Below are positions 5,436-49,247 of a stretch of DNA of 60,209 nt, piece by piece; positions within the stretch are counted from its first letter, which is position 1, and each line of letters opens with the position of its first letter. The notes beneath the pieces were generated by a model, which saw only the letters and a list, made by a program, of their open reading frames with translations, made no database searches and was not told where the DNA came from. The translations under genes and the position numbers were made by a program. The stretch lies in assembly GCA_023247215.1 (NCBI GenBank), contig JAHFGX010000002.1:1-60209 (forward strand), given 5' to 3'. Source of the DNA: Candidatus Omnitrophota bacterium. GTDB taxonomy: Bacteria; Omnitrophota; Gorgyraeia; Aquiviventales; Aquiviventaceae.

Positions 5436-5465
5436 TTGACAAGCTCGGCGCGGCCTCGCTACAAT
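5436..5465 (+). promoter_or_regulatory. candidate internal promoter in the 16S-tRNA spacer (TTGACA-N18-TACAAT)
   Basis: TTGACA at 5436-5441 and TACAAT at 5460-5465, 20 nt upstream of tRNA-Ile. Confidence 0.4.
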
Positions 5466-5484
5466 GCACGAGCCACGGCCGTTC

Positions 5485-5560
5485 GGGCCGATAGCTCAGT
5501 TAGCAGAGCACCGTGCTGATAACGCGGGGGTCAGTGGTGCAATTCCACTTCGGCCCACCA
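5485..5560 (+). tRNA. tRNA-Ile (anticodon GAU), CCA encoded
   Basis: Acceptor GGGCCGA/TCGGCCC, anticodon loop CTGATAA, 3' ACCA. D-loop AGTTAGCA and T-loop TGCAATT are atypical. Confidence 0.8.
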
Positions 5561-5638
5561 TCTTGTCAACCCGTTCTTTTTCAAGGTTCACGTGGGATCA
5601 CATGACCACGCGGCCAGCTGTGGCGGCGCGCACCGTCG

Positions 5639-5711
5639 GGGGCAGTAGCTCAGCTGGGAGAGCGCCTGATTTGCATTCAGGAGGTCAGGGGTTCGATCCC
5701 CCTCTGCTCCA
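5639..5711 (+). tRNA. tRNA-Ala (anticodon UGC), CCA not encoded
   Basis: GGGGCAG/CTGCTCC acceptor with the G3:U70 identity pair, anticodon loop TTTGCAT, T-loop TTCGATC. Confidence 0.9.
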
Positions 5712-5770
5712 CGTTTTGTGAACCTCAACAGATTTGTCCTCCCTCCGGTCTTCCCGGAGCTGAGGGCTGC

Positions 5771-5783
5771 TGCTCTTTGACAA
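5771..5783 (+). promoter_or_regulatory. boxA element (TGCTCTTTGACAA), 23S leader
   Basis: Second boxA-like copy, 30 nt upstream of the 23S processing stem. Confidence 0.6.
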
Positions 5784-5811
5784 CTACATTGGTCTCGTCG
5801 AGTTTCTTCGT

Positions 5812-8807
<2,996 letters not shown>

Positions 8808-8852
8808 ACGGTTTTTATTTACTCGACGAGACAACCAATGTAGTTGGTCAGT

Positions 8853-8888
8853 TTGGCTGCGAAGCGGGTGACACCGCTTCGCAGCCAA
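8853..8888 (+). other. perfect 15-bp hairpin in the 23S-5S spacer
   Basis: TTGGCTGCGAAGCGG (8853-8867), loop GTGACA, CCGCTTCGCAGCCAA (8874-8888). Confidence 0.7.
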
Positions 8889-8895
8889 CCGTTTT

Positions 8896-9013
8896 CTGGA
8901 GTGCCTATACCGAGGGGGTCACACCCGATCCCATTCCGAATTCGGTCGTTAAGCCCCTCAGGGCCGATGGTACTTATCCCGCAAGGGATTGGGAGAGTAG
9001 GACGGCGCTCCGG
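8896..9013 (+). rRNA. rrf: 5S ribosomal RNA
   Basis: Helix I CTGGAGTGCC/GGCGCTCCGG, conserved CCGATCCCATTCCGAA and GTACT...GGGAGAGTAGG segments, 118 nt, followed by a T-run. Confidence 0.85.
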
Positions 9014-29826: not shown

Positions 29827-30764
29827 GGAGCGGGATTGGATATCTCTTTCCAGGGCAGGGGGCGCAGGCGGTCGGCATGGGCCGAGCCTGGTACGACCGG
29901 GTGCCGGAGGCCCGCGAGCTCTATCGCCAGGCCAACTCCCGCCTGGGATGGGATCTGGCCGCACTCTGTTTTGAAGGTCCGGCGGAGGAGTTGGCCAAAA
30001 CCGAGCGGTGCCAGTTGGCGTTGTTTGTGACATCGCTGGCCGGGCTCGAAGGGTTGCGGGCGCTGGCACCGGAGGCCTCGCCATCGGCGATGGCCGGGTT
30101 GAGCCTGGGGGAACTGACGGCGCTGGCCGCAGGCGGCGCCTATTCGTTCGCCGACGGCCTCTACCTGGTGCAGGCGCGCGCGGAAGCCATGGCGGAGTGC
30201 GCCGCGCGCCATCCTGGCGCGATGCTCGCAGTGGTCGGGCTGACGCGCGATGCGATCGAGGACACCTGCCGGCGCACCGGCGCGGTGCTGGCCAACTTCA
30301 ACGCGCCGGATCAGCTGGTGGTATCGGGCCCGGTCTCCGCCGTGGAGCAGGCGGCGGCGGCGCTGAAGGGATCCGGGGCAAAGCGGGTCGCGCGGCTGGA
30401 GGTGAGCGGGGCGTTTCACTCGCCGCTGATGCAGCCGGCCGCCGACGCCTTCCGGCGCGCGCTGGAGCGCGTCACGATCTCTGCGCCGCGCGTGCCGGTG
30501 ATCAGCAACGTGACGGCCACGCCGGCCGCCACGCCCGAGGAGATCCGCGATCTCTTGGTGAAGCAGATCGTCAGTCCCGTGCTGTGGGAGCCGTCCGTCC
30601 GGCGGCTCATCCAGGATGGGATGCGCTCGTGCGTGGAGTTCCCGCCGGCCCGCGTCCTCAGTGGGCTGCTGCGCCGCATTGATCCGGCGGTCAAGGCTGC
30701 CCTGCTGAACGAGCCCGACGACCTTCCCAAACTCTCCGAACTCCTAGCTAGCGCGTCGCGCTAA
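29820..30764 (+). CDS. fabD: malonyl CoA-ACP transacylase
   Basis: YLFPGQGAQ.VGMG, GLSLGE active-site serine, and SGAFHSPLM. ATGGTGA overlap with fabH. Confidence 0.9.
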   Translation: MVRSGIGYLFPGQGAQAVGMGRAWYDRVPEARELYRQANSRLGWDLAALCFEGPAEELAKTERCQLALFVTSLAGLEGLRALAPEASPSAMAGLSLGELTALAAGGAYSFADGLYLVQARAEAMAECAARHPGAMLAVVGLTRDAIEDTCRRTGAVLANFNAPDQLVVSGPVSAVEQAAAALKGSGAKRVARLEVSGAFHSPLMQPAADAFRRALERVTISAPRVPVISNVTATPAATPEEIRDLLVKQIVSPVLWEPSVRRLIQDGMRSCVEFPPARVLSGLLRRIDPAVKAALLNEPDDLPKLSELLASASR

Positions 30765-31729
30765 CTTACGGCCATCATGCGCTCGATCGGCACGAGCGCG
30801 CGTCGGGCCAGCGTGGGATCCACGGTGATCCGGTGTTGGAGGGTGGCCAACGACCACAGGACTTTCTTCAAGGTATTGCGCTGCATGTGGTGGCAGGCGG
30901 CCTGCTCGCTGGCGGGGAGGAACGTCTTCTCCGGGTTGTCCTTCTGCATCCGGGAGAGGATGCCGGTTTCGGTCGCGATGATGAAGGTCTTGGCCGGCGA
31001 GGTCCGCACGTGCTGGACCATCCCCTCGGTCGAGAGGATCTTATCGGCGAGATCCATTTGTTTGGTCAGGCAGCCGCATTCCGGGTGCATGAGGAACTCC
31101 GCATCCGGGTGCGCGTCCCGCAAGGCGTCCACCCGCTCCGGAAGGATCACCGCATGCGCCGGGCAGTAGCCCTTCCACACCTCGATGTTCCGCTTGGTCT
31201 TGGTTTTCAGGTAGGTCCCCAGGTAGTAGTCCGGCACGAACAGGATCTCGCGGTCCGCCGGGATGCTCTCGATCACGTTGATCCCGTTGGCGGAGGTGCA
31301 GCAGTAGTCGCACTCCGCTTTGACGGCGGCGGAGGTGTTGACGTAACAGACCACCACGCCCTGCGAGTGCGCCGCCTTCCACTGGCGGATCTGATGGGGG
31401 ACGACCATGTCCGCCAGGGAGCAGCCGGCTTGCAGGTCCGGGATCAGCACGAGCTTGGCGGGGTTGAGCATGGCGGCGGTTTCCGCCATGAAATGCACGC
31501 CGCAGAAGACGATGATCTTGGCGGAGGTCGCCCTGGCCTGCTTCGCCAGGTTCAGCGAATCCCCGGTGAAGTCGGCCACGTCCTGAATATCGCTCTCCTG
31601 GTAGTTATGCGCCAGGATCACGGCGTCGCGCTCGCGCGCCAGTCGGCGGACTTCCGTTTTCAACTGGTCCGAAGAGACGCGCACCTGGTGGTGGTGTCCG
31701 TTCGTGAGGGTCGTGGTGGTGAGCTCCAT
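30761..31729 (-). CDS. nadA: quinolinate synthase
   Basis: ILAHNYQ...IQDVADFTGDSL, CGVHFMAETA, and C..M cluster ligands. Confidence 0.95.
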   Translation of the reverse strand: MELTTTTLTNGHHHQVRVSSDQLKTEVRRLARERDAVILAHNYQESDIQDVADFTGDSLNLAKQARATSAKIIVFCGVHFMAETAAMLNPAKLVLIPDLQAGCSLADMVVPHQIRQWKAAHSQGVVVCYVNTSAAVKAECDYCCTSANGINVIESIPADREILFVPDYYLGTYLKTKTKRNIEVWKGYCPAHAVILPERVDALRDAHPDAEFLMHPECGCLTKQMDLADKILSTEGMVQHVRTSPAKTFIIATETGILSRMQKDNPEKTFLPASEQAACHHMQRNTLKKVLWSLATLQHRITVDPTLARRALVPIERMMAVS

Positions 31730-31736
31730 GGCGAAC

Positions 31737-32525
31737 TTAGAAGGGAACGACGATCCCTTTCTCCTGCAGTTTGATGACGCGCGTTTGGGCGAACGAGTAA
31801 AGCCGAGCAGGCCGCTGGCGGCCCTCCCCCCGGCGCTCGCTGGTGGAGCGGAGGATCCCCAGCTGCAGCATCTTCTTGCGGAAATTGCGCTTGTCCAGGG
31901 CGGTGCCGAGGATCACCTCATAGGCCTGCTGCAGCTCGGAGAGGGTGAACTTCTTCGGCAGCAATTGAAACCCAACGCTGGTGTAGTTGACCTTGTGGCG
32001 CAACCGCTCCAGCGCCAGCGCGACGATCTGCCGGTGGTCGAACGCCAGCTCCGGCAGGCGCGTGACCGGACACCAGCGGCCGAGTGCTCCCTGGCCGTCC
32101 CGGCCGGCGGACGCCACCGGGGGCAGGGCCTGTCCCCGCAACTGCGCCCACTCCACCACCGCATAGTAGCTGACGCTGATCACCCGGCCCCGTGGATCCC
32201 GGTTCAGGTTCCCAAAGGTGTAGAGTTGCTCCAGGTAGACGCGGGTGATGTGGGTTTCTTCCTGCAGCTCGCGCAAGGCGGCTTCATCCACCGACTCGTG
32301 GGCGCGGACGAACCCGCCTGGCAGCGACCACGCGCCCGCGAACGGCGGCTGCTGCCGCGTGATCAGCAGCACCTTCAAGGCCCCCTCATGGATGGTGAAC
32401 AGCACCACGTCCACCGCCACGGCATGGGACGCAGGGGAGAGCGCCGAGGCGGGCGCGGAAGATTCAGTTGGGATCGTGTCTGTGGACGGCGTGGCGCTGC
32501 GCATCGTTGAGTAAGTGTACAACAT
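31737..32525 (-). CDS. nrtR: NrtR family Nudix-related transcriptional regulator of NAD metabolism
   Basis: N-terminal Nudix fold with box GFVRAHESVDEAALRELQEETHI. C-terminal winged-helix region LP.KFTLSELQQAYEVILGTALDKRNFRKK is typical of NrtR. Sits directly upstream of nadA; alternative start at 32504. Confidence 0.75.
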   Translation of the reverse strand: MLYTYSTMRSATPSTDTIPTESSAPASALSPASHAVAVDVVLFTIHEGALKVLLITRQQPPFAGAWSLPGGFVRAHESVDEAALRELQEETHITRVYLEQLYTFGNLNRDPRGRVISVSYYAVVEWAQLRGQALPPVASAGRDGQGALGRWCPVTRLPELAFDHRQIVALALERLRHKVNYTSVGFQLLPKKFTLSELQQAYEVILGTALDKRNFRKKMLQLGILRSTSERRGEGRQRPARLYSFAQTRVIKLQEKGIVVPF

Positions 32526-32671: not shown

Positions 32672-33739
32672 ATGGTCAAATTGCTCGTCGCAGACGACGA
32701 ACAGAAGATCTGTGAGATCCTCCACGCGTTCTTCTCGGAGCGGGGCTACCATGTCCTGATGGCGCACGATGGGCCGTCAGCGCTGGCCTGCATCCGGGAG
32801 GAGCGCCCCCACGTTGTGTTTCTCGATTTGCGCATGCCCGGCCTCGACGGCCTGGATATCCTCAAGCAAGCCAAGGCGATTGACGCCACCATCAAGATCA
32901 TCGTCGTGACCGCAATTGAGGATGACGTCGTGGTGCAGCAGGCCAAGGCCTTGGGCGCCACCGATTACGTCACCAAGCCCTTTACCCTCGAGTACCTCAA
33001 GGAGGACGTCCTCACCAAGGTGAGCATTTCCTTATATGAAGACCTCCGGAAGGTCAACGAGGAGCTCAAAGAGTCGGTGGAACGGCTGAAGAACGTGGTG
33101 CATGGCATCGTGGCGGCGTTCTCCGCCGTGATCTCGAAAATTGACCCGCACTATACCCACCAGCACGTCGTGCGCAGCGTGGACTACGCCTCCAAGATCA
33201 TCCGGAAGCTGCGGGAACAGGGGCGGTCCTCTGAATTCGGCGGGACGCCGGAAGAGGTGCTGCTGGCCGGGGTGCTCCTGCATGACATCGGCAAGATTTT
33301 CACCCCCAAAGAGATTCTCTATAAAGCCGGTCCGCTCAGCGACGAGGAGATGGCGATTATGCGCCGCCATCCGGTGGATGGCGCGGAAGTGCTGGAACGC
33401 ATTGCCGGTCTGAAGGATATGGCCAAGAATGTGCGCTATCATCACGAGCGCTATGACGGCTTAGGCTACCCGGAAGGCCGCAAGGGGCTGGAGATTCCCA
33501 TCGGCGCCCGAATCGCCTCCGTGGTGGACGCCTTCGATGCGATGATCAGCAATCGGCCGTACCGCAAAGCCATGCCGGTGGAGCAGGCCTTGGACGAGCT
33601 GAAGCGCCACCGGGGAACCCAGTTCGACCCCCAGGTGGTGGATACCCTCATTGCGCTCTACCGTGAAGGGAAGCTGAACGTCAACCACTCAGATCACGAC
33701 AACGATCCAAGCCCTCCAGAGTCCAAACTCGTCTACTAA
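32672..33739 (+). CDS. response regulator with HD-GYP c-di-GMP phosphodiesterase domain (RpfG family)
   Basis: REC (LLVADDE, FLDLRMPGLDG, TKPF) followed by an HD-GYP domain: LLHDIGK, HPVDGA, HHERYDGLGYPEG. Confidence 0.85.
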   Translation: MVKLLVADDEQKICEILHAFFSERGYHVLMAHDGPSALACIREERPHVVFLDLRMPGLDGLDILKQAKAIDATIKIIVVTAIEDDVVVQQAKALGATDYVTKPFTLEYLKEDVLTKVSISLYEDLRKVNEELKESVERLKNVVHGIVAAFSAVISKIDPHYTHQHVVRSVDYASKIIRKLREQGRSSEFGGTPEEVLLAGVLLHDIGKIFTPKEILYKAGPLSDEEMAIMRRHPVDGAEVLERIAGLKDMAKNVRYHHERYDGLGYPEGRKGLEIPIGARIASVVDAFDAMISNRPYRKAMPVEQALDELKRHRGTQFDPQVVDTLIALYREGKLNVNHSDHDNDPSPPESKLVY

Positions 33740-38613: not shown

Positions 38614-38844
38614 CGTCCTCCTCCGGGTTTGCCTTGATCAGGAAGGCTCACGTTGTATCCAACTATCCAAACCGTACTTGACGGCTCGCCAGCGCGTCAA
38701 GAGATAGAAAATGACGCAACGTTATCAGAAACTGAGCAAGATTAATCGGGTAGTGGTTGTCGGGGTCTGACTTGACTGCTGCCCACGTCCTTCGTGATAG
38801 CCGGTGATCGTGGTCTCAGGGAGCTAAACATGCACTCCGGCTCG

Positions 38845-38874
38845 TTGACAAATTCTTCTCGGGTTGGGTAATGT
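38845..38874 (+). promoter_or_regulatory. candidate promoter TTGACA-N18-TAATGT of the secretion operon
   Basis: TTGACA at 38845-38850 and TAATGT at 38869-38874, about 25 nt upstream of the riboswitch-like element. Confidence 0.3.
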
Positions 38875-38902
38875 TTAACTAGATATTTGAAAAGTAGTTA
38901 GT

Positions 38903-39025
38903 CAGCCACGAGAAAGGCAAACCTCCCCGCCAATGGGTTGGGCCGGGGACCCGCCGACGCAGTGATGGCGGGCTCGGGAACGAGGGGACGCAAAACCACG
39001 GGTCCCAGTGAGGATAGCCTGGCTG
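38903..39025 (+). ncRNA. candidate c-di-GMP-I (GEMM-I)-like riboswitch aptamer
   Basis: AAAGGCAAACC (38913-38923) and GGGGACGCAAAACC (38984-38997) match the two most conserved GEMM-I segments. They flank a hairpin closed by CCTC/GAGG, and the whole element is closed by a 6-bp P1 CAGCCA/TGGCTG (38903-38908 with 39020-39025). Confidence 0.45.
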
Positions 39026-39214
39026 CCACACGATTGACGCTAGGTTCTCCCCCCACGGATAGCCGGGTTGCCGCATCGGGGCATCTGACCTGTGAGGGGA
39101 AGAACCGTCACGAAGCTTCACTCAACTTCGTTCGCCTCTTGGCGGACCACCCCTCAATCAGATTTCCCCTTATGAGGTCCAAAATTCTGTGGTAAGGTAG
39201 GACGAGGGGGTGGT

Positions 39215-39583
39215 GTGGGAGAGATGAAGACCTTATTGATCGTCGATGATGAAAGCAAGGTCTGCCTTCTGCTGTCACGATTTTTTGAACAGCGGGGGTT
39301 GCGGACGCTGACCGCCACCTCAGGGACGGAAGCGCTGCAGAAGCTGGAGGCGGAGACCCCGGAGTACCTCTTATTGGATATCCGCATGCCGGATATGTCG
39401 GGGCTGGAGGTCTTGAAGCTGGCCAAGCAGCGGCACCCTCGCCTCAACGTCGTGATGTTAACTGGGTGCACTGACGCTGAAGCGGCTCAAACCGCCTTTC
39501 AACTGGGTGCGACCGACTACCTCACCAAACCGTTCCGATGGGGAGACCAGGAACTCGCGCGCGTTTTCTTTGACCCGAATTGA
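39215..39583 (+). CDS. single-domain response regulator (CheY-like REC), first gene of the secretion operon
   Basis: LLIVDDES, LLLDIRMPDMSG, VVMLTG and TKPF. GTG at 39215 or ATG at 39224. Confidence 0.8.
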   Translation: MGEMKTLLIVDDESKVCLLLSRFFEQRGLRTLTATSGTEALQKLEAETPEYLLLDIRMPDMSGLEVLKLAKQRHPRLNVVMLTGCTDAEAAQTAFQLGATDYLTKPFRWGDQELARVFFDPN

Positions 39584-39602
39584 CTTCCCCACCTCTTCGC
39601 TG

Positions 39603-41312
39603 ATGGCTGAGCGACACGGCATGACGCAACCATTTTCCTCAAAGCGGAAGACGCTCCTGGGAGCCCTCCTCGTGGAGAAGGGGCTCTTGACGTCGCAGCA
39701 GTTGTCCGACGCCATCACGCGCCAGGCCGAAACGGGCGACTATCTCGGCGCACTGCTCATCCGCCAAGGGGTGATCACGGAATACCAGTTGATGGAGGTG
39801 TTGGCCGAGCAGGTGGGGATGCCGTGCGTCCACCTGTCCGAGGCGCGGATCGATCCGCAGGCGCTGGCGAAAGTCCCCCCGAAATTCGCCAGCCATTACC
39901 ACATCATGCCGCTGGCGATCTCAGAAGATGCGCTCCATATCGCCATCACTGATCCGTTCAACGTCCAGACGCTCGATGAGCTGCGGTTGCTGCTGGGCTG
40001 CGACGTCAAACCGGTCCTGGCCAGTCACAGTGACATCTCCGAAGCCATTGAGCGCCATTACGGCATCGGCGCCTCGGCGGTGGAACGGCTGCTGGACACG
40101 GACTTGCGCGCGGCCGCCCCCGTGACCATCGCCGAAGACCTGACTGTGAAAACGGACGTCGCCTCGGTCGTGTCCTTCGTCAACCAGTTGATTCTCTCGG
40201 CGGTCCGCGACCGGGCCACGGACATTCACATCGAGCCGTTTGACAAGTTCCTGCGGATTCGCCAGCGGATCGATGGCGTCATGTATGAGGTTTCCATCCC
40301 GACGGATCTGAACAAGCTGCACCAGACGATCGTCTCGCGCATCAAGGTTATGGCCAAGCTCGATATTGCCGAAAAGCGGCTGCCACAGGACGGCCGCATC
40401 AAGGTGCGGCTGGATAGTCAAGAGGTAGACCTGCGCATTTCCGTGCTCCCGAGCAGCTTCGGAGAGTCCGTCAACATCCGCCTCCTCTCCTCGGGGATGC
40501 TCCACAGCTTGGAGCAGCTCGGCCTGGACGGTCCGCAGATGGACCTCCTGCAGGAGCTGATCCAAAAACCGCATGGCATCATCTTCGTCACCGGGCCGAC
40601 CGGCTCAGGCAAGACCACCACGCTGTACGCTTGCCTGTCAAAACTCAATGCGCCTCACGTAAAGATTTTGACCATCGAAGATCCTATTGAGTACCAGCTG
40701 CAAGGCATCACGCAGCTGCAGGTGCATCCGAAGATCGGGTTCTCGTTCGCCGCGGGGCTGCGCTCGATGTTGCGGCACGATCCCGACATCATGATGGTGG
40801 GAGAAGTGCGCGACCCGGAAACCGCGGAGATCACGATCCGCAGCGCGCTCACGGGGCACCTGGTGTTTTCCACCCTCCATACCAATGACGCGGCCGGCGG
40901 CGTCACGCGGCTGCTTGATATGGGCGTCGAGCCGTTTTTGGTATCCTCTTCGGTGCTGTGCTTCATCGCCCAGCGGCTGGTCAGAGTCATGTGCCCCGCC
41001 TGCCGCGAAGAGTGCGCGGCGGATCCCACGCTGTTAGCAAAATTCAATGTGGGGGGGCCGCTGCCGACGACGTTGCAGTCGAGCCGAGGCTGCACGGACT
41101 GTAAAGGAACGGGATTTAAGGGACGGACCGCCATCTATGAATTTCTCGTTGTCAGCGACCCCATCCAGCAGCTCGTTCTCAAACGGGCGTCCTCCCATGA
41201 CATCGCCCGCGCCGCGCAACAGACCAACGACATGCGTACCTTGCGGCAGGACGGCTGGCGGAAGGTCCTCCGCGGCATCACGACGCCCGCGGAAGTCCTC
41301 CGGGTCACCTAG
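39603..41312 (+). CDS. gspE: type II secretion / MSHA-type assembly ATPase with N-terminal MshEN domain
   Basis: T2SSE_N region with a tandem MshEN motif, Walker A GPTGSGKTTT, Walker B IMMVGEVRD, His box, and the tetracysteine CPAC...CTDC. Start chosen after the REC stop. Confidence 0.9.
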   Translation: MAERHGMTQPFSSKRKTLLGALLVEKGLLTSQQLSDAITRQAETGDYLGALLIRQGVITEYQLMEVLAEQVGMPCVHLSEARIDPQALAKVPPKFASHYHIMPLAISEDALHIAITDPFNVQTLDELRLLLGCDVKPVLASHSDISEAIERHYGIGASAVERLLDTDLRAAAPVTIAEDLTVKTDVASVVSFVNQLILSAVRDRATDIHIEPFDKFLRIRQRIDGVMYEVSIPTDLNKLHQTIVSRIKVMAKLDIAEKRLPQDGRIKVRLDSQEVDLRISVLPSSFGESVNIRLLSSGMLHSLEQLGLDGPQMDLLQELIQKPHGIIFVTGPTGSGKTTTLYACLSKLNAPHVKILTIEDPIEYQLQGITQLQVHPKIGFSFAAGLRSMLRHDPDIMMVGEVRDPETAEITIRSALTGHLVFSTLHTNDAAGGVTRLLDMGVEPFLVSSSVLCFIAQRLVRVMCPACREECAADPTLLAKFNVGGPLPTTLQSSRGCTDCKGTGFKGRTAIYEFLVVSDPIQQLVLKRASSHDIARAAQQTNDMRTLRQDGWRKVLRGITTPAEVLRVT

Positions 41313-41345
41313 CCACCCCTTCCCCTGCGTGTTATACTCGTTGGA

Positions 41346-42554
41346 ATGCCCCAGTACGTCTACCGGGCCAAGGACAACACCCTGAACGTCATCGAAGGGA
41401 CGATTGAGGCGGACAACGAGGCGGCCGCGATCACCCGTCTTGGTAGTCAAGGGGTATTCCCGCTCGTGATTACCGAGGCGGTGGCCCCCCGCTCCAGCCG
41501 CCCGAGCGTTTCCCACCGCGCCATCCCCAGCCGCACGATCGCCTACATGACCCGCCAACTCGCCGATTTGTTGGGCGGTGGTCTCCCGCTGCTGAGTGCT
41601 CTGACGCTGTTGGCCAAGCAGACGGAGCATCGTCCGTTGCGGCAGGTCATCGACTCCTTGAGTGCGAGCGTGCGCGAGGGGCAGTCCTTGAGCGCTGCGA
41701 TGGCGTATCATCCTGAGGTGTTTTCCACGCTCTACCTGAATATGGTCAAAGCCGGGGAAGTCGGCGGAGGGTTGGAGACGGTGCTGGTGCGGCTGGCCGA
41801 TGTGGGCGAGGCGGACGCGGAGCTGCGGAGTCGCGTCGTCAGCGCGCTGGTGTATCCCGCTATCGTGCTCGGGATCGGTCTGGTGACGGTGGGGGTGCTG
41901 TTGGTTTACGTGATCCCAAAAATCACCGGCATCTTTTCGGAGAGCGGGCAGTTGTTGCCCCTACCGACGAGGATCCTGCTGACGATCAGCCAGACGGTGA
42001 CGCAGTGGTGGTGGACGCTGCTTCTCAGCGTGGTGGTGATCGTCTGGCTCACGCGGCAGTGGCGGCTTGCTCCTCATGGGCGCCAGGTGTTAGACCAGTG
42101 CGTCCTGCGCTTGCCGCTGGTCGGGACGCTGTCCCGCAAGCTGGAGACCGCCCGCTTTACCCGGAACCTCGGCGTGATGATCGGGCAGGGCGTTCCCATC
42201 TTGCAGGCGCTTGAGGTCGGCTCGCACAACGTCTCGAACGTCGTCATCCAACGGGCCTTGCGGCAGGTGCAGGAGGCGGTTCGCGACGGCACCAGCATCG
42301 CGTCGGCGCTGAGCGCCTGCGGGCAATTTCCGGTCTTTGTCAGCAATATGGTGTCACTGGGAGAAGAGTCCGCCACGGTGGATACGGCGCTACTCAAGGT
42401 GGCAGTCGCCTACGAGCGGGAGGTCGATCGGACCATGCGGACGCTGACGACGGTGTTGGAGCCGTTGCTGATCGTGGTGGTGGGGCTGATCGTCATGTTC
42501 ATTGTGATCTCGATATTGCTGCCGATCTTCAACATTGGATTGGTGGCGCAATGA
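41346..42554 (+). CDS. gspF: type II secretion system platform protein GspF/PilC
   Basis: 402 aa with two T2SSF repeats, 3 TM segments, and typical ...LL..G.PLL.AL... motifs. Confidence 0.9.
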   Translation: MPQYVYRAKDNTLNVIEGTIEADNEAAAITRLGSQGVFPLVITEAVAPRSSRPSVSHRAIPSRTIAYMTRQLADLLGGGLPLLSALTLLAKQTEHRPLRQVIDSLSASVREGQSLSAAMAYHPEVFSTLYLNMVKAGEVGGGLETVLVRLADVGEADAELRSRVVSALVYPAIVLGIGLVTVGVLLVYVIPKITGIFSESGQLLPLPTRILLTISQTVTQWWWTLLLSVVVIVWLTRQWRLAPHGRQVLDQCVLRLPLVGTLSRKLETARFTRNLGVMIGQGVPILQALEVGSHNVSNVVIQRALRQVQEAVRDGTSIASALSACGQFPVFVSNMVSLGEESATVDTALLKVAVAYEREVDRTMRTLTTVLEPLLIVVVGLIVMFIVISILLPIFNIGLVAQ

Positions 42555-43030
42555 TGCATCGAAATCTACACGAGGGGCAAGGGGCAGGGGCATGGAACAC
42601 ATCCCACGCCCCACGCCCCACGCCCCTTCGTGGGTTCACCCTCGTCGAGATTATGCTGGTGGTCATCATCATCGGGGTCCTCGCGGCGATGGTGATCCCG
42701 CGGTTTGCCGGGCGGACGGAGCAAGCTCGAATCGCCCGCGCCAAATCCGACATCGCCATCATCGGACAAGCGCTCGACCTGTACGAGTTGGACATCGGGC
42801 AATACCCGGAAAGCCTGGAGATGCTGGTACAGCGGGAAGCGCCCTCAAGCCTTGAGGAGGGCGCCGCCTTGCGGTGGAACGGACCCTACCTGAAAAAAGG
42901 CTTGCCGAAGGATCCCTGGGGGAGTCACTACCACTTCCGTGCGGAGTCTCAGCATAACCAAGACTACGATTTGTACTCGTTAGGCCCCGACGGTCAGGAA
43001 GGCCACGACGACATCACCGACTGGGAATGA
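42551..43030 (+). CDS. gspG: major pseudopilin GspG with an unusually long (28 aa) prepilin leader
   Basis: RG|FTLVEIMLVVIIIGVLAAMVIPRF class III signal, then the GspG core ARIARAKSDI...LDLYELDIGQYPESL...DPWG..Y...S. ATGATG overlaps the gspF stop. Confidence 0.85.
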   Translation: MMHRNLHEGQGAGAWNTSHAPRPTPLRGFTLVEIMLVVIIIGVLAAMVIPRFAGRTEQARIARAKSDIAIIGQALDLYELDIGQYPESLEMLVQREAPSSLEEGAALRWNGPYLKKGLPKDPWGSHYHFRAESQHNQDYDLYSLGPDGQEGHDDITDWE

Positions 43031-43046
43031 CCAGTGACATTGCGGA

Positions 43047-43580
43047 TTGCGAATTTCGGATTGCGGATTGAAACACCGGGATTCGAAGCCTCCTCGTAGC
43101 TTTACCTTAATCGAGTTGGTGTTTGTCGCCGTCGTGGTGGTTCTGCTACTGGTGGTTTCCCTCCCGCAGTTTTCCAAAACCTCACAACGCCTCCACGCCG
43201 AGCAGGTTGCGTTCGAGCTAGCGCAACTGTTGCGCTTCGCCAGGGAACAGGCGATCACCCGCGGGCACGTCGTCGTGTGGGTCTGGAATGCATCGGCGCG
43301 TCGTGCACGACTTGAGGCCCTCGATGGCACCGGCCAGCAAGTGCCGATTGCGGATCGCCTGGCGCAGAGTGCTGTTGTGCCAAGCGACGTCACACTCCGT
43401 CTGACGCAGGACGGCGCTCAAACCGATGCGGTGAAATTTTTTCCGGACGGCACCAGCCAGCCGACGAGCCTGCTTGTGAGCGGTGGTGCCACCGTCTATA
43501 CTGTGACGGTGGATGTTGCGACCAGCCAGGTGGCGGTGATGACCGATGCGACGACAGAGTCGGGGGCTGCTGCTCATTGA
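43047..43580 (+). CDS. gspH: minor pseudopilin, GspH-like
   Basis: RS|FTLIELVFVAVVVVLLLV prepilin-like N-terminus and a GspH-like body (AFELAQLLRFAREQAI). TTG start; an alternative TTG lies at 43068. Confidence 0.6.
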   Translation: MRISDCGLKHRDSKPPRSFTLIELVFVAVVVVLLLVVSLPQFSKTSQRLHAEQVAFELAQLLRFAREQAITRGHVVVWVWNASARRARLEALDGTGQQVPIADRLAQSAVVPSDVTLRLTQDGAQTDAVKFFPDGTSQPTSLLVSGGATVYTVTVDVATSQVAVMTDATTESGAAAH

Positions 43581-43941
43581 AGCCATCCTTGCCGCGGTGG
43601 TGATCGCGGTGGGGCTGGTCTTCGTCAGCCGCGGCCTCTCCAGCCAGCTCGAGGCACTTCGAACAGTCGAGGACTACGACACGCTGATGACGTTGGCGCG
43701 CAGCCGCCTGCTGACGCTTGAAGCGGAACGGACGGCAGGCCGCGTCACCGGCCACCTGAACGCAAGCGAGTTCGACGCCCCCTATCAACACTACCACTGG
43801 GCGATTACCACGCAGTCGCTGGGAGCCGACACGCTGTACCGCGAGGTGATCCTGACGGTGCGGCGGAGCGACGGCCCTTCGTCGGTGGTACAACTCTCCG
43901 AAGTTTGGCCGACCGAATGGGTTCCTGAAGAATGGCTCTGA
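43546..43941 (+). CDS. gspI: minor pseudopilin, GspI-like
   Basis: MRRQSRG|LLLIEAILAAVVIAVGLV with E+5. The size (131 aa) and its position after gspH fit GspI. Confidence 0.55.
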   Translation: MRRQSRGLLLIEAILAAVVIAVGLVFVSRGLSSQLEALRTVEDYDTLMTLARSRLLTLEAERTAGRVTGHLNASEFDAPYQHYHWAITTQSLGADTLYREVILTVRRSDGPSSVVQLSEVWPTEWVPEEWL

Positions 43942-44546
43942 GCCGGCGCGGCCTGACGTTCGTCGAACTGTTGATTGCAGCGACGATGCTGTCCATTCTG
44001 TTCGTGGGGTTGAGTGGGCACCTGCGAGGCGGCATCGAAGTGTGGCGGCGCGCCACGCACACCGTTGAGGCTCTTCAGCGTCAGCGGGTGGCGCTTGATC
44101 AGTTCGAGCAGGATCTGGTCCGCGCGATCCCCGCTACCGTCCCTCGCGACCCCTCGCTGCAGCCGAGCTTTGAGGCCGACCATCTTCGGTGGTGGACGGT
44201 GGTGCCAGCAGCAGCACAGCAGACCGGTCGAGTCCGTTTGGTTTCGTACGCCTGCAATCAGGTGAACGGAGTCGCAGGATTATGGAAGGTCAGCCAGTCG
44301 GTGGGTGAGGCGCGCGAACAGATGGCGGCCGAGCCCGTCCGATTGCTGGCCGGCTGCGAGGGGCTGTCGATCCGGTATGCGTATCTGCCGGCCGAGGGCG
44401 AGGGGCCGATCGAGTGGCAAGCCGACTGGGAATTTCCTGATGCGCTGCCGAAGCTGCTCGAGGTATCGGTCCGGCTGTCGTCGGGTCATGAGGTCAAACG
44501 GACGATGATGATCCCCATCGGCGTGTTGGAACCCCGTCCCTCGTAA
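43932..44546 (+). CDS. gspJ: minor pseudopilin, GspJ-like
   Basis: MALSRRG|LTFVELLIAATMLSILFV with E+5; 204 aa; position matches the G-H-I-J-K order. Confidence 0.55.
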   Translation: MALSRRGLTFVELLIAATMLSILFVGLSGHLRGGIEVWRRATHTVEALQRQRVALDQFEQDLVRAIPATVPRDPSLQPSFEADHLRWWTVVPAAAQQTGRVRLVSYACNQVNGVAGLWKVSQSVGEAREQMAAEPVRLLAGCEGLSIRYAYLPAEGEGPIEWQADWEFPDALPKLLEVSVRLSSGHEVKRTMMIPIGVLEPRPS

Positions 44547-45527
44547 ATGAAACGAGGCTCGTTGCTGATTGTGACCCTTTGGATGGTGACGCTCTTGAGC
44601 GTCTTGGCGATCGCCATGGCGAAATATCTGTCGCTCGAAGTCCGGCTGACCAAGTACCGGTTGGCGCGCGAGCAAGCGAAAGCGCTGGCCCGCAGCGGCG
44701 TGTATCTGGCAATGCAGCGGTTGGCGGCGGATGCGCAGCAGGCCGATGAACGGTATGACTGGTTGGGGGATGATTGGGCCATGTTTGCGCCTCCGGAGGG
44801 GGAGTTGGATCATCCGGCCGCATGGATTGTGCCGCTTCCGGCAGCAGGCTCAAGGGTTTCAGAACGTGGTCGGGTGGAAATTCAGATGATCGACGAAGAG
44901 CGAAAACTGAACCTCAATCAGATCGCCTGCGACCCCGCCTCTGCCACCTACAAGGCGTTCACCAACTTCTCAGAGACCGTGGGATGGGTCGAGAAGCTCG
45001 TCGATTATCACGATATGGATAGCACTCCGTGTGGCTCCAACGGCTTGGAGGAAGATGACGCTGTCCAGCCACCGTACAAAGCAAAGGACGCAGCGCTGGT
45101 GGCCCATGAAGAGGTGCTGGACATTCCGGGCTGGCCGGCCGAAACGCTCTCGACGATGCGACAATGGTCGACGGTGGCTGACCCCACCACTTCATCGAAT
45201 ATCACATTGAACATCAACACGGTGTCCCCGGAACTCTTGGTGGCGTTAGGCTTCGGCCAGGCGACAGCGCAGGCGCTGGCTGCCTGCCGTGAGCAGGGGA
45301 TGGTGTTCAAGGAGGCCTCCAACATCCTGACGACTGCGGAATCGTGCGCCGGTCCGTCCGGATTGAGCTCTGCTGAACGGAGCCTGCTGGCCAGCCAGTT
45401 TGTCGTCGCCTCGCAGACGTTTACCGTCATTTCGACCGGGATCGTGGCGGAGCTGGCGGTCAAGGTTCAGGTCGAAGCAATCGTTCAACGTTCGCCGGAG
45501 CTCAAGATCCTTGCGTGGAGAGAGTGA
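44547..45527 (+). CDS. gspK: minor pseudopilin GspK
   Basis: N-terminal hydrophobic segment lacking E+5, DEERKLNLNQ (GspK K-L-N-I-N motif), and a C-terminal HhH-like region. Confidence 0.7.
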   Translation: MKRGSLLIVTLWMVTLLSVLAIAMAKYLSLEVRLTKYRLAREQAKALARSGVYLAMQRLAADAQQADERYDWLGDDWAMFAPPEGELDHPAAWIVPLPAAGSRVSERGRVEIQMIDEERKLNLNQIACDPASATYKAFTNFSETVGWVEKLVDYHDMDSTPCGSNGLEEDDAVQPPYKAKDAALVAHEEVLDIPGWPAETLSTMRQWSTVADPTTSSNITLNINTVSPELLVALGFGQATAQALAACREQGMVFKEASNILTTAESCAGPSGLSSAERSLLASQFVVASQTFTVISTGIVAELAVKVQVEAIVQRSPELKILAWRE

Positions 45528-46933
45528 TGGCGACACGGATCGCGATTGAGTGGGCCCGCAATTCATTGCGACTGGCCGTCTCGAAGGGTTCGCAGGATCG
45601 GTGGCGCCTACGGGAGCTCCGCGTCGAGCCGTTCGAATCGGGCACGGCGCCGGCGGCCGTGTTGCGCACTGCCCTCAAGGCGCTGAGGCTGGGCGGGGGC
45701 GTGCGGGTGATCGGCGTGATTCCTCGCGAGCAAGTGATCTTGCGGGTGATGAAGTTTCCGACGACGTCATCCGAGGAGTTGCGGCAAATGGTGGAGCTGT
45801 CCGGCAAAGCGCAACTGCCCTATGCCACAGAGCAGGCGGTTGTCGACTACTCACTGATCGATCAGCGAGAGGGGTTTAGCACCGTCGCGATGGTCGCCTG
45901 CCAGCGCGACTTCTTGGAGCGGCAACTCCATCCCTTGCACGAAGCCGGTCTGCAGGTCGAGTGCTTGACCGTCAGTTCTTCCGGCGTGCTGGGCTGGTAT
46001 ACGGCCGCGCGGATGACCAGTCTGGTTGAACCGGTGCTCGTGATCAACCGCGATGAGGATCGGACGGATCTGGTGCTCATCAGAGACGGGAGGCTGTTGC
46101 TGACGCGAAGCATCCCCTCCGGCAGCGACGAGGATGGCCCGGAGCTGCTGACACATGAAATCGAGCAGAGCCTCTCCACACTGCGCAAGGACCTGCCGGG
46201 GATCGAGGTGCGTTCGTTGCTCTTGACCGGGGTCGGTCCGCTGGCGGCGTGGAAAGAGAAGGCGTCACAACACCTCAGCCTGCCGGCATCGGTTGTCGAT
46301 GGGGCGCAGCCGCTGACCGGACGGGCCATGAGCGAAACCGCTTCGGCGTCTCCGGTGGTTGTCGGCGGAGCGGCCTGCGCGCCAACGCGTCAACTCCTGA
46401 ACCTCAACCCGCCCGAAGTGCGGCAGACGACCCGCCACCAGTCGCAGGTGCGTGAGGTGGTGACGGTGGGGGCGCTCCTCTTGGCAGTCTTGGTGTTGGG
46501 GGGCAGCGTCTCGGCGTTGCACGTGTACCGTCAGTATCGTCTGATCGCGCGCATCGATCAGGCGATTTCGGAGGTGGATCCATTGACGCGTCAAACGAAA
46601 ACCGCGGCGCAGAGGGTCGAGCTCGTGACGGCGGTGCTTGAGCAACGTCGCCGGCTGGCCGCGTTGCTGGGCGGCGTCTTTCGAAGCACGCCATCGACGA
46701 TCACGCTGGACGCGCTGACGTTTGATCGCTTACGGCGCGAGATGGGGCTGCGTGGCCGCGCGCCGTCGACGCAAGACGTCCTGGCGTATCGCAAAGCGCT
46801 GGAACAGCTGGAGGGTGTGGCGGAAGCCCGCCTGAAGTACGCCACGGCACGACAGACGGCCGACGGCGAGCGCGCAGATTTTGAAATCCTCGTCAAGACC
46901 ACGGATCACGAACCCCGACCCGCAACGCGCTAA
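45527..46933 (+). CDS. PilM-PilN fusion (GspL-equivalent assembly platform protein)
   Basis: Actin-like PilM N-terminal domain, a TM segment VVTVGALLLAVLVLGGSV, and a PilN-like periplasmic C-terminus. ATG overlaps the gspK stop. Confidence 0.6.
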   Translation: MATRIAIEWARNSLRLAVSKGSQDRWRLRELRVEPFESGTAPAAVLRTALKALRLGGGVRVIGVIPREQVILRVMKFPTTSSEELRQMVELSGKAQLPYATEQAVVDYSLIDQREGFSTVAMVACQRDFLERQLHPLHEAGLQVECLTVSSSGVLGWYTAARMTSLVEPVLVINRDEDRTDLVLIRDGRLLLTRSIPSGSDEDGPELLTHEIEQSLSTLRKDLPGIEVRSLLLTGVGPLAAWKEKASQHLSLPASVVDGAQPLTGRAMSETASASPVVVGGAACAPTRQLLNLNPPEVRQTTRHQSQVREVVTVGALLLAVLVLGGSVSALHVYRQYRLIARIDQAISEVDPLTRQTKTAAQRVELVTAVLEQRRRLAALLGGVFRSTPSTITLDALTFDRLRREMGLRGRAPSTQDVLAYRKALEQLEGVAEARLKYATARQTADGERADFEILVKTTDHEPRPATR

Positions 46934-46934
46934 G

Positions 46935-47459
46935 ATGCCATCCTTCAGGCCACGTGAGCGCCGGTTGCTGCTGGTGACGTTGATCGTGATCGGTTGCTGG
47001 CTCATCGTTTCATGGCTGGTCGTGCCACTGAGCCATCGCGCCCAAGACTTGGAGCAGCGTGTGGATTCCCAGACGATGGCGCTTGAGGCCCTCAATCGTC
47101 TGCTGGCCCGGCAGACGTCGATTGAGCAGCACTACCAGGCGGTGGCCGGCTATCTATCAACAGACAAGCCGGAGGCTGCGGAAGAGCGGCTGTTGACCGA
47201 TTTGCAAATCTTTGCGCAGCAGGCGGGCGTGCAGATCAATCTCAAACCCAGACCTGCCAAACGGGAAGGGCAGGTGACTCGCGTGGGGGTCGAAGTCGAT
47301 CTGCACACCAACCAAGACAAACTGTTTGCGTTCCTCGACGCGCTGCTGAGGATGCCGAAGCTCGTGCAGATTGAGCATCTGCAGATCTCCGGCGCGCCGG
47401 GCCAACCCGGCATCCTCCATACCCAACTCCTCATCGAACAGCTGACCATTCCGCAATAG
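46935..47459 (+). CDS. GspM/PilO-like inner membrane platform protein
   Basis: N-terminal TM LLLVTLIVIGCWLIVSWLVV, a coiled coil, and a ferredoxin-like C-terminus (VGVEVDLHTNQDKLFAFLDAL). Confidence 0.55.
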   Translation: MPSFRPRERRLLLVTLIVIGCWLIVSWLVVPLSHRAQDLEQRVDSQTMALEALNRLLARQTSIEQHYQAVAGYLSTDKPEAAEERLLTDLQIFAQQAGVQINLKPRPAKREGQVTRVGVEVDLHTNQDKLFAFLDALLRMPKLVQIEHLQISGAPGQPGILHTQLLIEQLTIPQ

Positions 47460-47509
47460 GCCATGCGGACAACGATCAGCGAAGTGACGCATGCATTCCC
47501 GTTTTTATC

Positions 47510-47559
47510 TTGACCGAAATGTTGGTATGTGCTATGACTACTCTCTACTTAGAGAGTAG
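47510..47559 (+). promoter_or_regulatory. candidate promoter (TTGACC-N17-TATGAC) plus a perfect 10-bp inverted repeat
   Basis: TTGACC at 47510-47515 and TATGAC at 47533-47538. The palindrome CTACTCTCTA-ct-TAGAGAGTAG (47538-47559) ends 2 nt before the ATG. Confidence 0.45.
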
Positions 47560-47561
47560 AA

Positions 47562-47810
47562 ATGATTCGAGTAGATAACCTTTATCTGATCAAAGACTTA
47601 TCAAGGTTAAGCGGGCACTCGATCTATACCATTAAGTTCTATCTGAAGTTGGGGCTGATTCAGGAAGTCGGGCGAAGCCAAGAGACGCGGTTTCGCTATT
47701 TTAATGAAGAGACGTTAGAGCGCCTGGCGAGGATCCGTGCCTTACGCAAGGAAGGCAAGGGGTTGACCGACATCGCGCGTCTCTTGCCCACGATGGACCG
47801 CGCGGCATGA
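47562..47810 (+). CDS. short MerR-family HTH protein (DNA-binding domain only)
   Basis: 82 aa. YLIKDLSRLSGHSIYTIKFYLKLGLI...RFRYFNEETLERLARIRALRKEGKGLTDI matches the MerR HTH plus wing with no effector domain. Its stop overlaps the exeA-like start (ATGA). Confidence 0.7.
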   Translation: MIRVDNLYLIKDLSRLSGHSIYTIKFYLKLGLIQEVGRSQETRFRYFNEETLERLARIRALRKEGKGLTDIARLLPTMDRAA

Positions 47811-48646
47811 GTTATTACACCGTGCTGGGCCTCGCGAAAGAGCCGTTCTCCACGAGTCCCGATCCATTCTTTTTCTACCGTTCCAGTGCCCACCTGCAGG
47901 CCATCACGCGGATTGAAATCGCCATCCGGCTCAAACGAGGCCTGTCGCTCATTCTGGGCGACGTGGGCACCGGCAAGACGACGCTAGCCCGCACGCTGCT
48001 GACCAACTTCCCGCAGGAAGAAGGGTTCAATTTCCATATCCTGCTGGATCCGTCCTTTGAGTCCGAATACCAGTTCTTGCTGCACCTCAGCCGCATCTTC
48101 GGCGTGCAGCCGGCCTTCAAATCCACGCTCGACTGTCGGGAGGCGATCGAGCATTACCTCTTTCAGAGCGGCGTCACCGAGGGCAAGACGACCGTCCTGG
48201 TGATCGACGAAGGCCAGAAGCTGTCCACGCACATGTTGGAGAACCTGCGCGTCCTGCTGAATTACGAGACCAACGAATTCAAGCTGCTGCAGGTCGTGAT
48301 CTTTTCGCAGATGGAGCTGCTCGGACGGATCACGCGGATCAAAAACTTCATCGACCGCGTGGCCCTCAAGTACATCATCAATCCGCTGAATGAAGAGGAA
48401 ACCAGCCAGATGATCCAGTTCCGTCTGCAGTCGGCCGGGCTGGAGTCCTCACGGATCGTCTTCATGCCGGAGGCCATTCGAGCCGTCTACCGGTGCACCC
48501 AAGGCTACCCGCGCAAGATCGCCCTCCTCTGCCATAATGCGCTGGAGGCGATGGTGATGTACGAGCGGCCGGTGATTGACGAGTCGCTCATCCAGGAGTT
48601 GGCTGCTCATGAGTCCCGATGGGTCGGCGCAGGCGCCCCTGCCTGA
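47807..48646 (+). CDS. ExeA/GspA/MshM-like AAA ATPase
   Basis: PF..SPDP.F.Y.S..H..A N-terminus, Walker A GDVGTGKTT, and Walker B VLVIDEGQ. No peptidoglycan-binding domain. Confidence 0.8.
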   Translation: MSYYTVLGLAKEPFSTSPDPFFFYRSSAHLQAITRIEIAIRLKRGLSLILGDVGTGKTTLARTLLTNFPQEEGFNFHILLDPSFESEYQFLLHLSRIFGVQPAFKSTLDCREAIEHYLFQSGVTEGKTTVLVIDEGQKLSTHMLENLRVLLNYETNEFKLLQVVIFSQMELLGRITRIKNFIDRVALKYIINPLNEEETSQMIQFRLQSAGLESSRIVFMPEAIRAVYRCTQGYPRKIALLCHNALEAMVMYERPVIDESLIQELAAHESRWVGAGAPA

Positions 48647-49247
48647 AGAAAAACTATTGAAGTTGATTCGGGGTAAGCCCCGCCACCCCGCTGCGTCGTC
48701 GCCGCTGGCGGCTGCCAGCCGCGAGATACGCCACGTCCTGCGTGCCTCAGACGGGGAGACAGCGTGGTGGTTCCACTGGCCCCAATGGGTCGGTGGCCTG
48801 TTGGTCGCGATCCTGGCCATCGAAGTGCTGGTGATGGTCGTGCAGATCATTCGCCCGCTCCCGCATGTCGAGCTCCCCGCTGTGACAGCGACCGCCCCGT
48901 CCGCCGTCGACCGCACAACGGCGCCATCCGTCGAGATGCCGTCCCTGAGCGAACAGCCGGCGCAATCCATTTTCGCGACGACGGCTGCTGAGCCACAGTG
49001 GGCAGCGGCATCCTCGTCGTCGACGGTGTCGCCGAGCGCCCAAGCCAACGCCTTGGCGGCGCGCTTGAGCTTGGTGGGGATCGTCGCCGGCGATCCGCCG
49101 CAAGCGATCATCGAAGACAGCCAGACCCAAAAGACGTTCTTCGTCACCAAAGGACAGCGGGTGATCGAAGGTGCCGTGCTTCAGGAGATCCGGGATTCTC
49201 ACGTGATCCTCCAGTATCAAGGAGAGCAAATTGAACTCACACTCTGA
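48609..49247 (+). CDS. GspB/GspC-like secretin-interacting protein (PilP/HR-type C-terminal domain)
   Basis: TM WVGGLLVAILAIEVLVMVV and C-terminal LSLVGIVAGDPPQAIIEDSQTQKTFFVTKGQRVIEGAVLQEIRDSHVILQYQGEQIELTL. AGGAG lies 10 nt upstream of the ATG at 48609. Confidence 0.55.
   Translation: MSPDGSAQAPLPEEKLLKLIRGKPRHPAASSPLAAASREIRHVLRASDGETAWWFHWPQWVGGLLVAILAIEVLVMVVQIIRPLPHVELPAVTATAPSAVDRTTAPSVEMPSLSEQPAQSIFATTAAEPQWAAASSSSTVSPSAQANALAARLSLVGIVAGDPPQAIIEDSQTQKTFFVTKGQRVIEGAVLQEIRDSHVILQYQGEQIELTL

Follow-up and report, generated by a model that had tools for sequence, protein, structure and literature searches.

Results and Discussion

Is a riboswitch for cyclic di-GMP (c-di-GMP) present in the leader of a type II secretion operon from groundwater, in an uncultured bacterium of the phylum Candidatus Omnitrophota, and if so, how is it built? 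The question was raised by a stretch of 60,209 nt (assembly GCA_023247215.1, contig JAHFGX010000002.1; the whole stretch is called the window in the following), for which a reading from sequence alone had proposed a GEMM-I-like c-di-GMP aptamer at 38903-39025 on the + strand, in the leader of an operon that starts with a REC gene and gspE. We could show that this leader element, which precedes the REC-gspE...gspD operon by 148 nt on the + strand, truly belongs to the c-di-GMP class I (GEMM-I) riboswitch family and that it is best read as a 170-nt element at about 38907-39076 instead of within the limits proposed earlier. The probable joint explanation of the data is a GEMM-I aptamer of ~170 nt with a canonical core, enlarged hairpins and a translational expression platform as proposed below. 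Covariance-model membership, the core nucleotides, a duplicated strand, mutually exclusive helices and the gene context directly support this explanation, and from the analysis we infer ligand binding, the transcription start and the relay through the platform with its direction.

Family membership and binding core

In an Rfam cmscan of the whole window, RF01051 (c-di-GMP-I) matches 38906-39030 of the + strand with 35.6 bits, which is above the curated gathering score of 35. The E-value of this match is 0.0026 for a search of 120 kb against 4227 families and 2.3e-05 for the leader alone. The c-di-GMP-II model (RF01786), which the sequence-only reading had named for comparison, had no match among those with E <= 10, either for 38620-39260 or for 38880-39040. 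A region scan of the leader also showed that RF03167 (c-di-GMP-I-GGC) aligns to 38907-39076 with 42.4 bits (E = 1.3e-08), making it the highest-scoring model of the clan in E-value mode. As it does not reach its own gathering score of 59, and as the sequence after the first hairpin reads GCAAA in the window and GCGAA in the RF03167 consensus (A38992 being the RF01051 base), membership in the GGC variant was rejected. The pattern GGCAAACC-N50-75-GACGCAAA occurs a single time in the window, on the + strand, with 0.01 occurrences expected from shuffles. Since RF01051 exceeds its gathering score and both leader E-values are low, on the right strand and in a family-typical gene context, a chance look-alike is excluded and the family assignment stands.

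The two boxes on which the earlier proposal was built, AAAGGCAAACC at 38913-38923 and GGGGACGCAAAACC at 38984-38997, are present letter by letter. In the model alignments, G38916 takes the place of G20, a ligand-contacting base of the Vc2 aptamer, and A38992 that of the intercalating A47, and the C92 equivalent is C39071 or C39026, depending on which of two strand copies closes the aptamer (see below). The positions of the interhelical pair are also conserved, with C38989 in the GAC loop as C44 equivalent and G39062 as G83 equivalent (G39017 in the other copy), so placed that a C38989-G39062 pair would correspond to it. In Vc2, G20, A47 and C92 have these contact roles and the interhelical Watson-Crick C-G pair is universally conserved (PMC4744006). 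The linker between the two hairpins, which is 'virtually always AAA' in GEMM elements (PMC1950547), is A38992-A38994 in the model alignments, with the second hairpin beginning at 38994. With the canonical G, A and C at the contact equivalents, c-di-GMP is the expected ligand, and not a variant one.

First hairpin

In the first hairpin of GEMM elements a conserved 3-nt internal loop separates a 2-bp stem from a 6-bp stem, and the latter almost always carries a GNRA tetraloop (PMC1950547). The sequence-only reading had described it here as one long stem closed by CCTC/GAGG (38922-25 and 38982-85) with an internal CCCGCC/GGCGGG stem (38950-55 and 38967-72). Both complementary segments lie where they were claimed to be, and the hairpin reads better as a canonical one that carries a 49-nt insertion in the 5' strand of its 6-bp stem, as the folding model suggests. 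In this arrangement the 2-bp stem (G38917-C38991, C38918-G38990) is followed by the internal loop AAA/GAC and by a 6-bp stem with the outer pairs C38922-G38986, C38923-G38985 and C38973-G38984 and the inner pairs U38974-A38983, C38975-G38982 and G38976-C38981, capped by the GNRA loop GGAA (38977-80). The 6-bp stem and the GGAA cap exist only if the insertion is accepted; Infernal itself places a 59-nt insertion here where the model expects 10. Alone, the 49 nt fold to -24.2 kcal/mol as two hairpins, A1 (38924-38949) and A2 (38950-38972), the latter being the CCCGCC/GGCGGG stem. The canonical register evaluates at -31.2 kcal/mol versus -31.7 kcal/mol for the unconstrained optimum, and the Infernal register at -29.1 kcal/mol. 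With a mobile or repeated origin in mind, we looked for other copies of the insertions in the window and found none.

Second hairpin and its duplicated 3' strand

The second solution offered by RF03167 exists because the 3' strand of the second hairpin is duplicated. A 19-nt direct repeat (D1) consists of a proximal copy, GGATAGCCTGGCTGCCACA, and a distal copy, GGATAGCCGGGTTGCCGCA, which are identical at 16 of 19 bases (84%) and separated by a sequence that has diverged. The window contains exactly two occurrences of the motif, and two matches were found in none of 100 shuffles. The repeat unit corresponds exactly to the 3' strand of the second hairpin, the junction 'GC' and the 3' strand of P1, and in the distal copy AG (39061-62) is bulged and the junction is formed by G39070 and C39071.

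Several comparisons favour the distal copy. RF03167 scores 42.4 bits with it versus 32.2 bits when limited to the interval of the sequence-only reading and thus to the proximal copy, where five pairs are non-standard; with the distal copy all second-hairpin pairs are standard. Counted for the second hairpin alone, 10/10 pairs are standard with the distal copy and 8/10 with the proximal one (C38999.U39020 and A38995.C39023 fail), and the proximal hairpin in the Rfam register evaluates at +0.3 kcal/mol. The segment 38992-39073 folds by itself into the second-hairpin pairing of the family, the minimum free energy (MFE) structure being identical to the centroid (-29.0 kcal/mol). Constrained folds in the context 38900-39080 give -59.8 kcal/mol for the distal and -50.0 kcal/mol for the proximal form, a difference of 9.8 kcal/mol. 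With the distal copy P1 can form in the family register (C38909-G39073, G38910-C39072), and with the proximal copy it cannot, as C38909 is then opposite A39028. P1 is short and weak, and its pairs and those of the outer helix are invariant in the four strains described below. In the distal fold the proximal copy is used as the 5' strand of an extension helix whose partner starts at 39039 and reaches to 39050 or 39056. The 170-nt distal form is also the best alignment in the three strain variants of the locus (L167-L169).

The P1 helix proposed earlier, CAGCCA/TGGCTG, is not supported. Its strands (38903-38908 and 39020-39025) are complementary as stated, and the second of them lies in the proximal copy, where it overlaps 39018-24, aligned by Rfam to the second hairpin as its 3' strand. 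A P1 of this kind would leave no junction 'GC' bearing the C92 equivalent. The short second hairpin of that reading is the one with two non-standard pairs, and the better 3' strand at 39057-39075 had been overlooked. The CAGCCA/UGGCUG helix is seen in the MFE structure of truncated transcripts (136-nt fragment), within a fold that is not that of the family, and plain MFE folding of 38903-39025 did not yield the family fold either (z = -1.5).

The most serious alternative would be a compact ligand-binding form at 38903-39030 that is closed by the proximal strand, with a distal copy that has its role in the expression platform alone. The best RF01051 alignment (35.6 bits) lies on the proximal copy, which is also transcribed first, and the CAGCCA/UGGCUG helix appears in the 136-nt MFE structure just mentioned. 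A further point in its favour comes from strain L167, where G39000A and T39015C, 16 nt apart and on one haplotype, both turn a G.U into a Watson-Crick pair if the hairpin with the proximal copy is drawn in a shifted register (from -2.7 to -4.7 kcal/mol); T39015C is neutral in the distal fold. As this register was defined after the SNPs (single-nucleotide polymorphisms) had been seen, the L167 pattern is left unexplained and lends no support. Against the compact form stand the two non-standard pairs with their +0.3 kcal/mol, the missing in-register P1, the P1 of the sequence-only reading, which takes up the strand needed at the base of that hairpin and costs the junction C, and the sister model RF03167, which favours the distal copy by 10 bits despite an insertion of ~47 nt. 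We thus regard the compact form as unlikely and keep the distal closure.

Expression platform and promoters

The possible platform, put at ~190 nt in the sequence-only reading, measures about 198 nt from 39026 to the ATG at 39224. It contains an alternative hairpin, H_alt, that encloses the distal copy (Table 1). H_alt (-31.4 kcal/mol) and the second hairpin (-29.0 kcal/mol) are mutually exclusive and nearly equal in energy, and the MFE structures of 38992-39110 and of the full leader form H_alt, not the second hairpin. No U tract follows H_alt, and no intrinsic terminator is predicted on the + strand, the sole call being on the - strand inside the complement of the aptamer. The region with the Shine-Dalgarno sequence (SD) and the start codon pairs with 39144-39180 (the duplex with 39200-39230 has -21.5 kcal/mol), and the strand 39089-39104 can pair with 39160-39180 (-18.6 kcal/mol). 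Computed over the ensemble, opening of the SD/start region costs 15.7 kcal/mol in the free leader, which falls to 13.3 kcal/mol with the distal aptamer and rises to 16.6 kcal/mol with proximal closure.

These values suggest a model in which, without c-di-GMP, H_alt would capture the distal strand and represent the candidate ligand-free structure. With c-di-GMP the aptamer would win and the 3' arm of H_alt (39089-39104) would be freed, which could then invade the pairing of 39144-39180 with 39200-39230, where the ribosome-binding site and the start codon are masked, and so lead to more translation. The outcome would be an ON switch at the level of translation, a direction that the folding model allows us to propose only tentatively and with low confidence.

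For the aptamer to be part of the mRNA, transcription has to start upstream of it. A candidate promoter read from the sequence (TTGACA and TAATGT, Table 1) would place the start ~25 nt before the aptamer. The earlier description of the leader as a lower-GC intergenic region holds for this promoter part (GC content 0.46 at 38700-38899) and not for the element itself, which is GC-rich (0.66 at 38900-39099). Orthologous loci have short leaders behind a conserved promoter box, CCCTTGACGCG...ATCAGATTTACT. CTTGAC boxes are also found at 38677 and 38771 on the + strand as part of a second direct repeat, D2 (ACTTGACGGCTCGCCA, 38676-38691, and ACTTGACTGCTGCCCA, 38770-38785), which resembles the CCCTTGACGCG box; the D2 copies upstream of the aptamer may be further promoters or regulator sites.

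The window from 39137 to 39230 aligns with the complete promoter and leader of the orthologous REC-gspE loci L161, L163 and L166, and the ATG at 39224 is conserved as start in the orthologues. Within this segment lies the remnant of the ancestral core promoter, whose -35 is polymorphic (TTGGCG in the window and L168, TTGACG in L167 and L169) and whose -10-like hexamer has decayed to TTTCCC, without the key A and T. The alignment points to a recent acquisition of the aptamer-bearing segment upstream of an existing promoter. The decayed ancestral promoter thus lies downstream of this segment, and a start there would leave the riboswitch out of the mRNA.

Table 1. Features of the leader element and of the surrounding genes in the window.
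Feature	Position	Strand	Basis
REC + HD_5/HD response regulator (HD-GYP type), 5 kb upstream of riboswitch	32672-33739	+	Pfam
Candidate upstream promoter: TTGACA (38845-50), 18-nt spacer, TAATGT (38869-74)	38845-38874	+	read from sequence
P1 5' strand; optional outer helix G38905-C38907 with G39080-C39082	38905-38910	+	RF03167 alignment, constrained fold
Junction AGAAAG	38911-38916	+	RF01051 and RF03167 alignments
First hairpin (P2 of Vc2 structure; P1 in Weinberg 2007)	38917-38991	+	constrained fold, family features
49-nt insertion in 5' strand of 6-bp stem	38924-38972	+	folds as two hairpins
Linker AAA and second-hairpin 5' strand (AACC-A-CGGGUCC)	38992-39005	+	Rfam alignments
Proximal copy GGATAGCCTGGCTGCCACA: second-hairpin 3' strand, junction, P1 3' strand	39012-39030	+	direct repeat D1
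Alternative hairpin H_alt, enclosing distal copy	39043-39106	+	-31.4 kcal/mol alone
Distal copy GGATAGCCGGGTTGCCGCA: second-hairpin 3' strand 39057-39069, junction, P1 3' strand 39072-73	39057-39075	+	RF03167 alignment, folds
Ancestral core promoter remnant: TTGGCG (39139-44), 18 nt, TTTCCC (39163-68)	39139-39168	+	alignment with L161, L163, L166
Ribosome-binding region GAGGGGG (39204-10) and ATG (39224-26) of REC gene	39204-39226	+	paired in every predicted state
Operon REC ... secretin: GspF, G, H, (I), J, K, L, GspM/PilO-like, AAA_22, GspD	39224-51087	+	Pfam
REC gene (CheY-like, single-domain response regulator)	39224-39583	+	Pfam
GspE-type ATPase with N-terminal MshEN domain	39603-41312	+	Pfam
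AAA_22 protein	47807-48646	+	Pfam
Secretin GspD	49231-51087	+	Pfam

Arguments against and alternative explanations

Several observations weigh against the 170-nt aptamer with its platform. The RF01051 score is borderline, just 0.6 bits over the gathering score, and the best alignment of this model takes the proximal copy. P1 has just two in-register pairs, and the 11-nt tetraloop receptor (CCUAAG/UAUGG type), which is present in ~50% of GEMM members (PMC1950547), was not seen, the element having GUCCCAG versus the consensus guCUAAg. Neither the first hairpin (z = -0.10) nor the second (z = -1.14) is more stable than shuffled sequence, and for 38900-39082 the family fold, with -60.7 kcal/mol, lies 18 kcal/mol above the unconstrained MFE of -79.0 kcal/mol. 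Given an MFE structure without the family fold and such z-scores, thermodynamic stability is not evidence in this GC-rich leader. According to the equilibrium model the accessibility of the SD changes little, by 2.4-3.3 kcal/mol, so that the ON direction follows only weakly from it. A sigma-70 consensus scan called no promoter, including 38845-38874, since the -10 of the latter matches at only three of six positions, and transcripts starting at the ancestral promoter remnant downstream of the aptamer would escape control.

The comparative data add to these points, as covariation could not be observed. The element is present in four assemblies from different samples, the window and L167-L169 (98.7-99.9% identity), and as only these strain variants of at least 98.7% identity carry it, no compensatory change was found in 56 pairs. 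In the four-strain alignment 54 of the 56 pairs are invariant, one C-G pair is changed to U-G at the tip of A2 (C38958T in L168) and one is broken, namely by G39000A in L167, which results in an A.C mismatch in the distal hairpin and lowers its stability from -29.0 to -25.6 kcal/mol and the score from 42.4 to 37.2 bits. Scans based on GspE in genome and metagenome contigs (identity at most 76%) found the two boxes upstream on the + strand in none of 160 loci. A protein search with REC gave a series of homologues from 79% down to 45% identity, and the element (GEMM-I at E <= 0.1 to 1) is absent from the six orthologous REC-gspE loci with covered upstream region: L163 (67%), L164 (60%), L165 (59%), L170 (68%), L175 (62%) and L001 (45%). 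The contigs of L161, L166, L171, L174 and L176 end too near the gene to judge; the closest ones, L161 and L166 (77-79%), are uninformative because their contigs break off 108 and 71 nt ahead of the ATG and do not reach the aptamer site. A search for relatives with the N-terminus of the divergent upstream gene gave no match.

The duplicated strand could be functional in itself. Two interchangeable closing strands, with H_alt as competitor, would give a three-state strand-exchange switch, in which the proximal copy, being transcribed first, may close the hairpin before the distal copy, the only one of the two with which binding pocket and P1 would be complete. The module would have been captured recently upstream of the ancestral promoter, whose remnant was perhaps recycled to bury the ribosome-binding site. 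We keep this variant in mind, since the two copies have kept 16 of 19 bases while the spacer diverged and since the L167 SNPs strengthen the proximal hairpin, and give it a small share of our confidence only.

A decaying or non-functional relic, with the operon driven from the downstream promoter, would fit the borderline score, the absence from all orthologous loci examined, the mismatch in one strain and the family fold 18 kcal/mol above the MFE. It would also fit the homology of 39139-39168 to the promoter of the orthologues, with a perfect TTGACG -35 in two strains. Speaking against it, every nucleotide for ligand contact and for the tertiary pair is intact, the downstream -10 has decayed to TTTCCC, and the aptamer core is identical in the four assemblies except for one SNP. 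A relic is therefore rather improbable in our view, and the functional 170-nt aptamer stays the preferred explanation.

Even less probable is that the element senses another cyclic dinucleotide, such as 3'3'-cyclic GMP-AMP (cGAMP) as in GEMM-Ib, or represents a GGC/UAU specificity variant. RF03167 is indeed the top clan model in E-value mode, and the large insertions could alter the pocket. The model nevertheless stays at 42.4 bits versus its gathering score of 59, and the window has the RF01051 base at A38992. cGAMP-selective GEMM-Ib riboswitches typically have an A at the G20-equivalent position, which is a G here (G38916). Finally, a small protein encoded by an 85-aa open reading frame with TTG start (38938-39195, + strand) was rejected because of its codon-position composition (GC flat at 0.58/0.59/0.64 versus about 0.6/0.4/0.8 in the neighbouring genes) and the lack of any homologue among 5.8 billion proteins, and the region is also missing from the orthologous loci, even if a gene caller annotated a gene across the leader in one assembly and three of four strain SNPs are synonymous third-position changes in frame, a pattern with a probability of ~0.05 by chance.

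Gene context

The closest relatives of the GspE encoded in the operon (at most 72-76% identity) come from metagenome-assembled genomes of Candidatus Omnitrophota, many of them from groundwater. The AAA_22 protein of the operon is possibly ExeA/GspA-like, and the C-terminus of the secretin shows a sub-threshold TonB_C match (24.1 versus 24.6 bits). Gene families preceded by GEMM elements include pulF, pilM/O/Q, hofQ, cheY and HD-GYP genes (PMC1950547), and as type II secretion and cheY-like genes are among them, the context is typical, which agrees with the remark of the sequence-only reading that such elements precede pilus and secretion genes. The response regulator of HD-GYP type 5 kb upstream of the riboswitch is a candidate c-di-GMP phosphodiesterase, judged from its domains, and makes it plausible that the organism uses c-di-GMP.

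The gene upstream of the leader is divergent and encodes a 754-aa Big_7/NPCBM_assoc protein with its ATG at 38613. The GEMM box AAGGCAAACC is also found on the - strand at 38626-38635, 13 nt upstream of this ATG, as one arm of a perfect 10-nt inverted repeat whose other arm is 38914-38923 (~0.2 expected by chance in a rough estimate). A second aptamer on the - strand was rejected, as there is no Rfam match at this box and no room before the start codon. Elsewhere in the window, quinolinate synthase NadA is encoded beside a NrtR-type Nudix/winged-helix regulator (30761-32525, - strand), and a complete rRNA operon is located at 3390-9013 on the + strand (16S 3804-5372, 23S 5812-8809, 5S 8897-9013); of its three tRNAs, two (5485, 5639) lie between 16S and 23S and the third (3390) lies upstream.

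Conclusion

For the GEMM-I class itself nothing changes in what is known. If the element is functional, c-di-GMP riboswitch control reaches type II secretion in Candidatus Omnitrophota, a poorly studied uncultured phylum for which a full-text literature search found no paper tying it to c-di-GMP riboswitches. The two large peripheral insertions show to what extent a GEMM-I scaffold can grow and still barely pass the family model, and similarly enlarged members probably lie below the threshold in automated annotation. With its absence from the orthologous loci examined and the promoter remnant downstream, the locus also offers a datable case of a riboswitch added to an existing operon.

Compared with GEMM-I (RF01051) and its representative Vc2 from Vibrio cholerae, the element shares the two adjacent hairpins with the AAA joint, the boxes AAAGGCAAACC, GGGACGCAAA and AGCCnGGnUGCC, the equivalents of G20, A47, C92 and the interhelical C-G pair, the GNRA loop proposed for the first hairpin and the 5' regulatory position before secretion, pilus and cheY-type genes. 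It differs in its size, ~170 nt versus the 87 positions of the model, in the 49-nt two-hairpin insertion, where normally the terminal loop follows directly after the 6-bp stem, and in an extension of ~49 nt of the second hairpin, for which a duplicate of the hairpin's 3' strand is used. In contrast to GEMM-I it also has no 11-nt tetraloop receptor, a P1 of only 2 (+3) bp, and no terminator overlapping the second hairpin, the competing hairpin being without a U tract. With RF03167 it shares the overall fold, and the distal closure and P1 became visible in the alignment to this model. A class I aptamer that is likewise followed by an expression platform of unusual length is described in the abstract of PMC11218506, namely the c-di-GMP-I riboswitch Bc1 from Bacillus thuringiensis; according to this abstract Bc1 has two rho-independent terminators, whereas none is predicted here and control would be translational.

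A last parallel concerns MshE, an ATPase whose MshEN domain is a c-di-GMP receptor (PMC5013675), as the second gene of the operon encodes a GspE-type ATPase with this domain. In residues 18-70 of GspE both 24-residue MshEN motifs are recognisable with a 5-residue spacer between them. The first Arg is missing from both motifs, which have LLG and YLG in place of RLG, and neither fits the published pattern even in its relaxed form (PMC5013675), which makes c-di-GMP binding by this GspE uncertain. An HD-GYP response regulator is encoded nearby. If the riboswitch is functional, the operon may answer c-di-GMP at two levels, so that the same messenger could act on the mRNA leader and, by way of the MshEN domain of the ATPase, on the protein.

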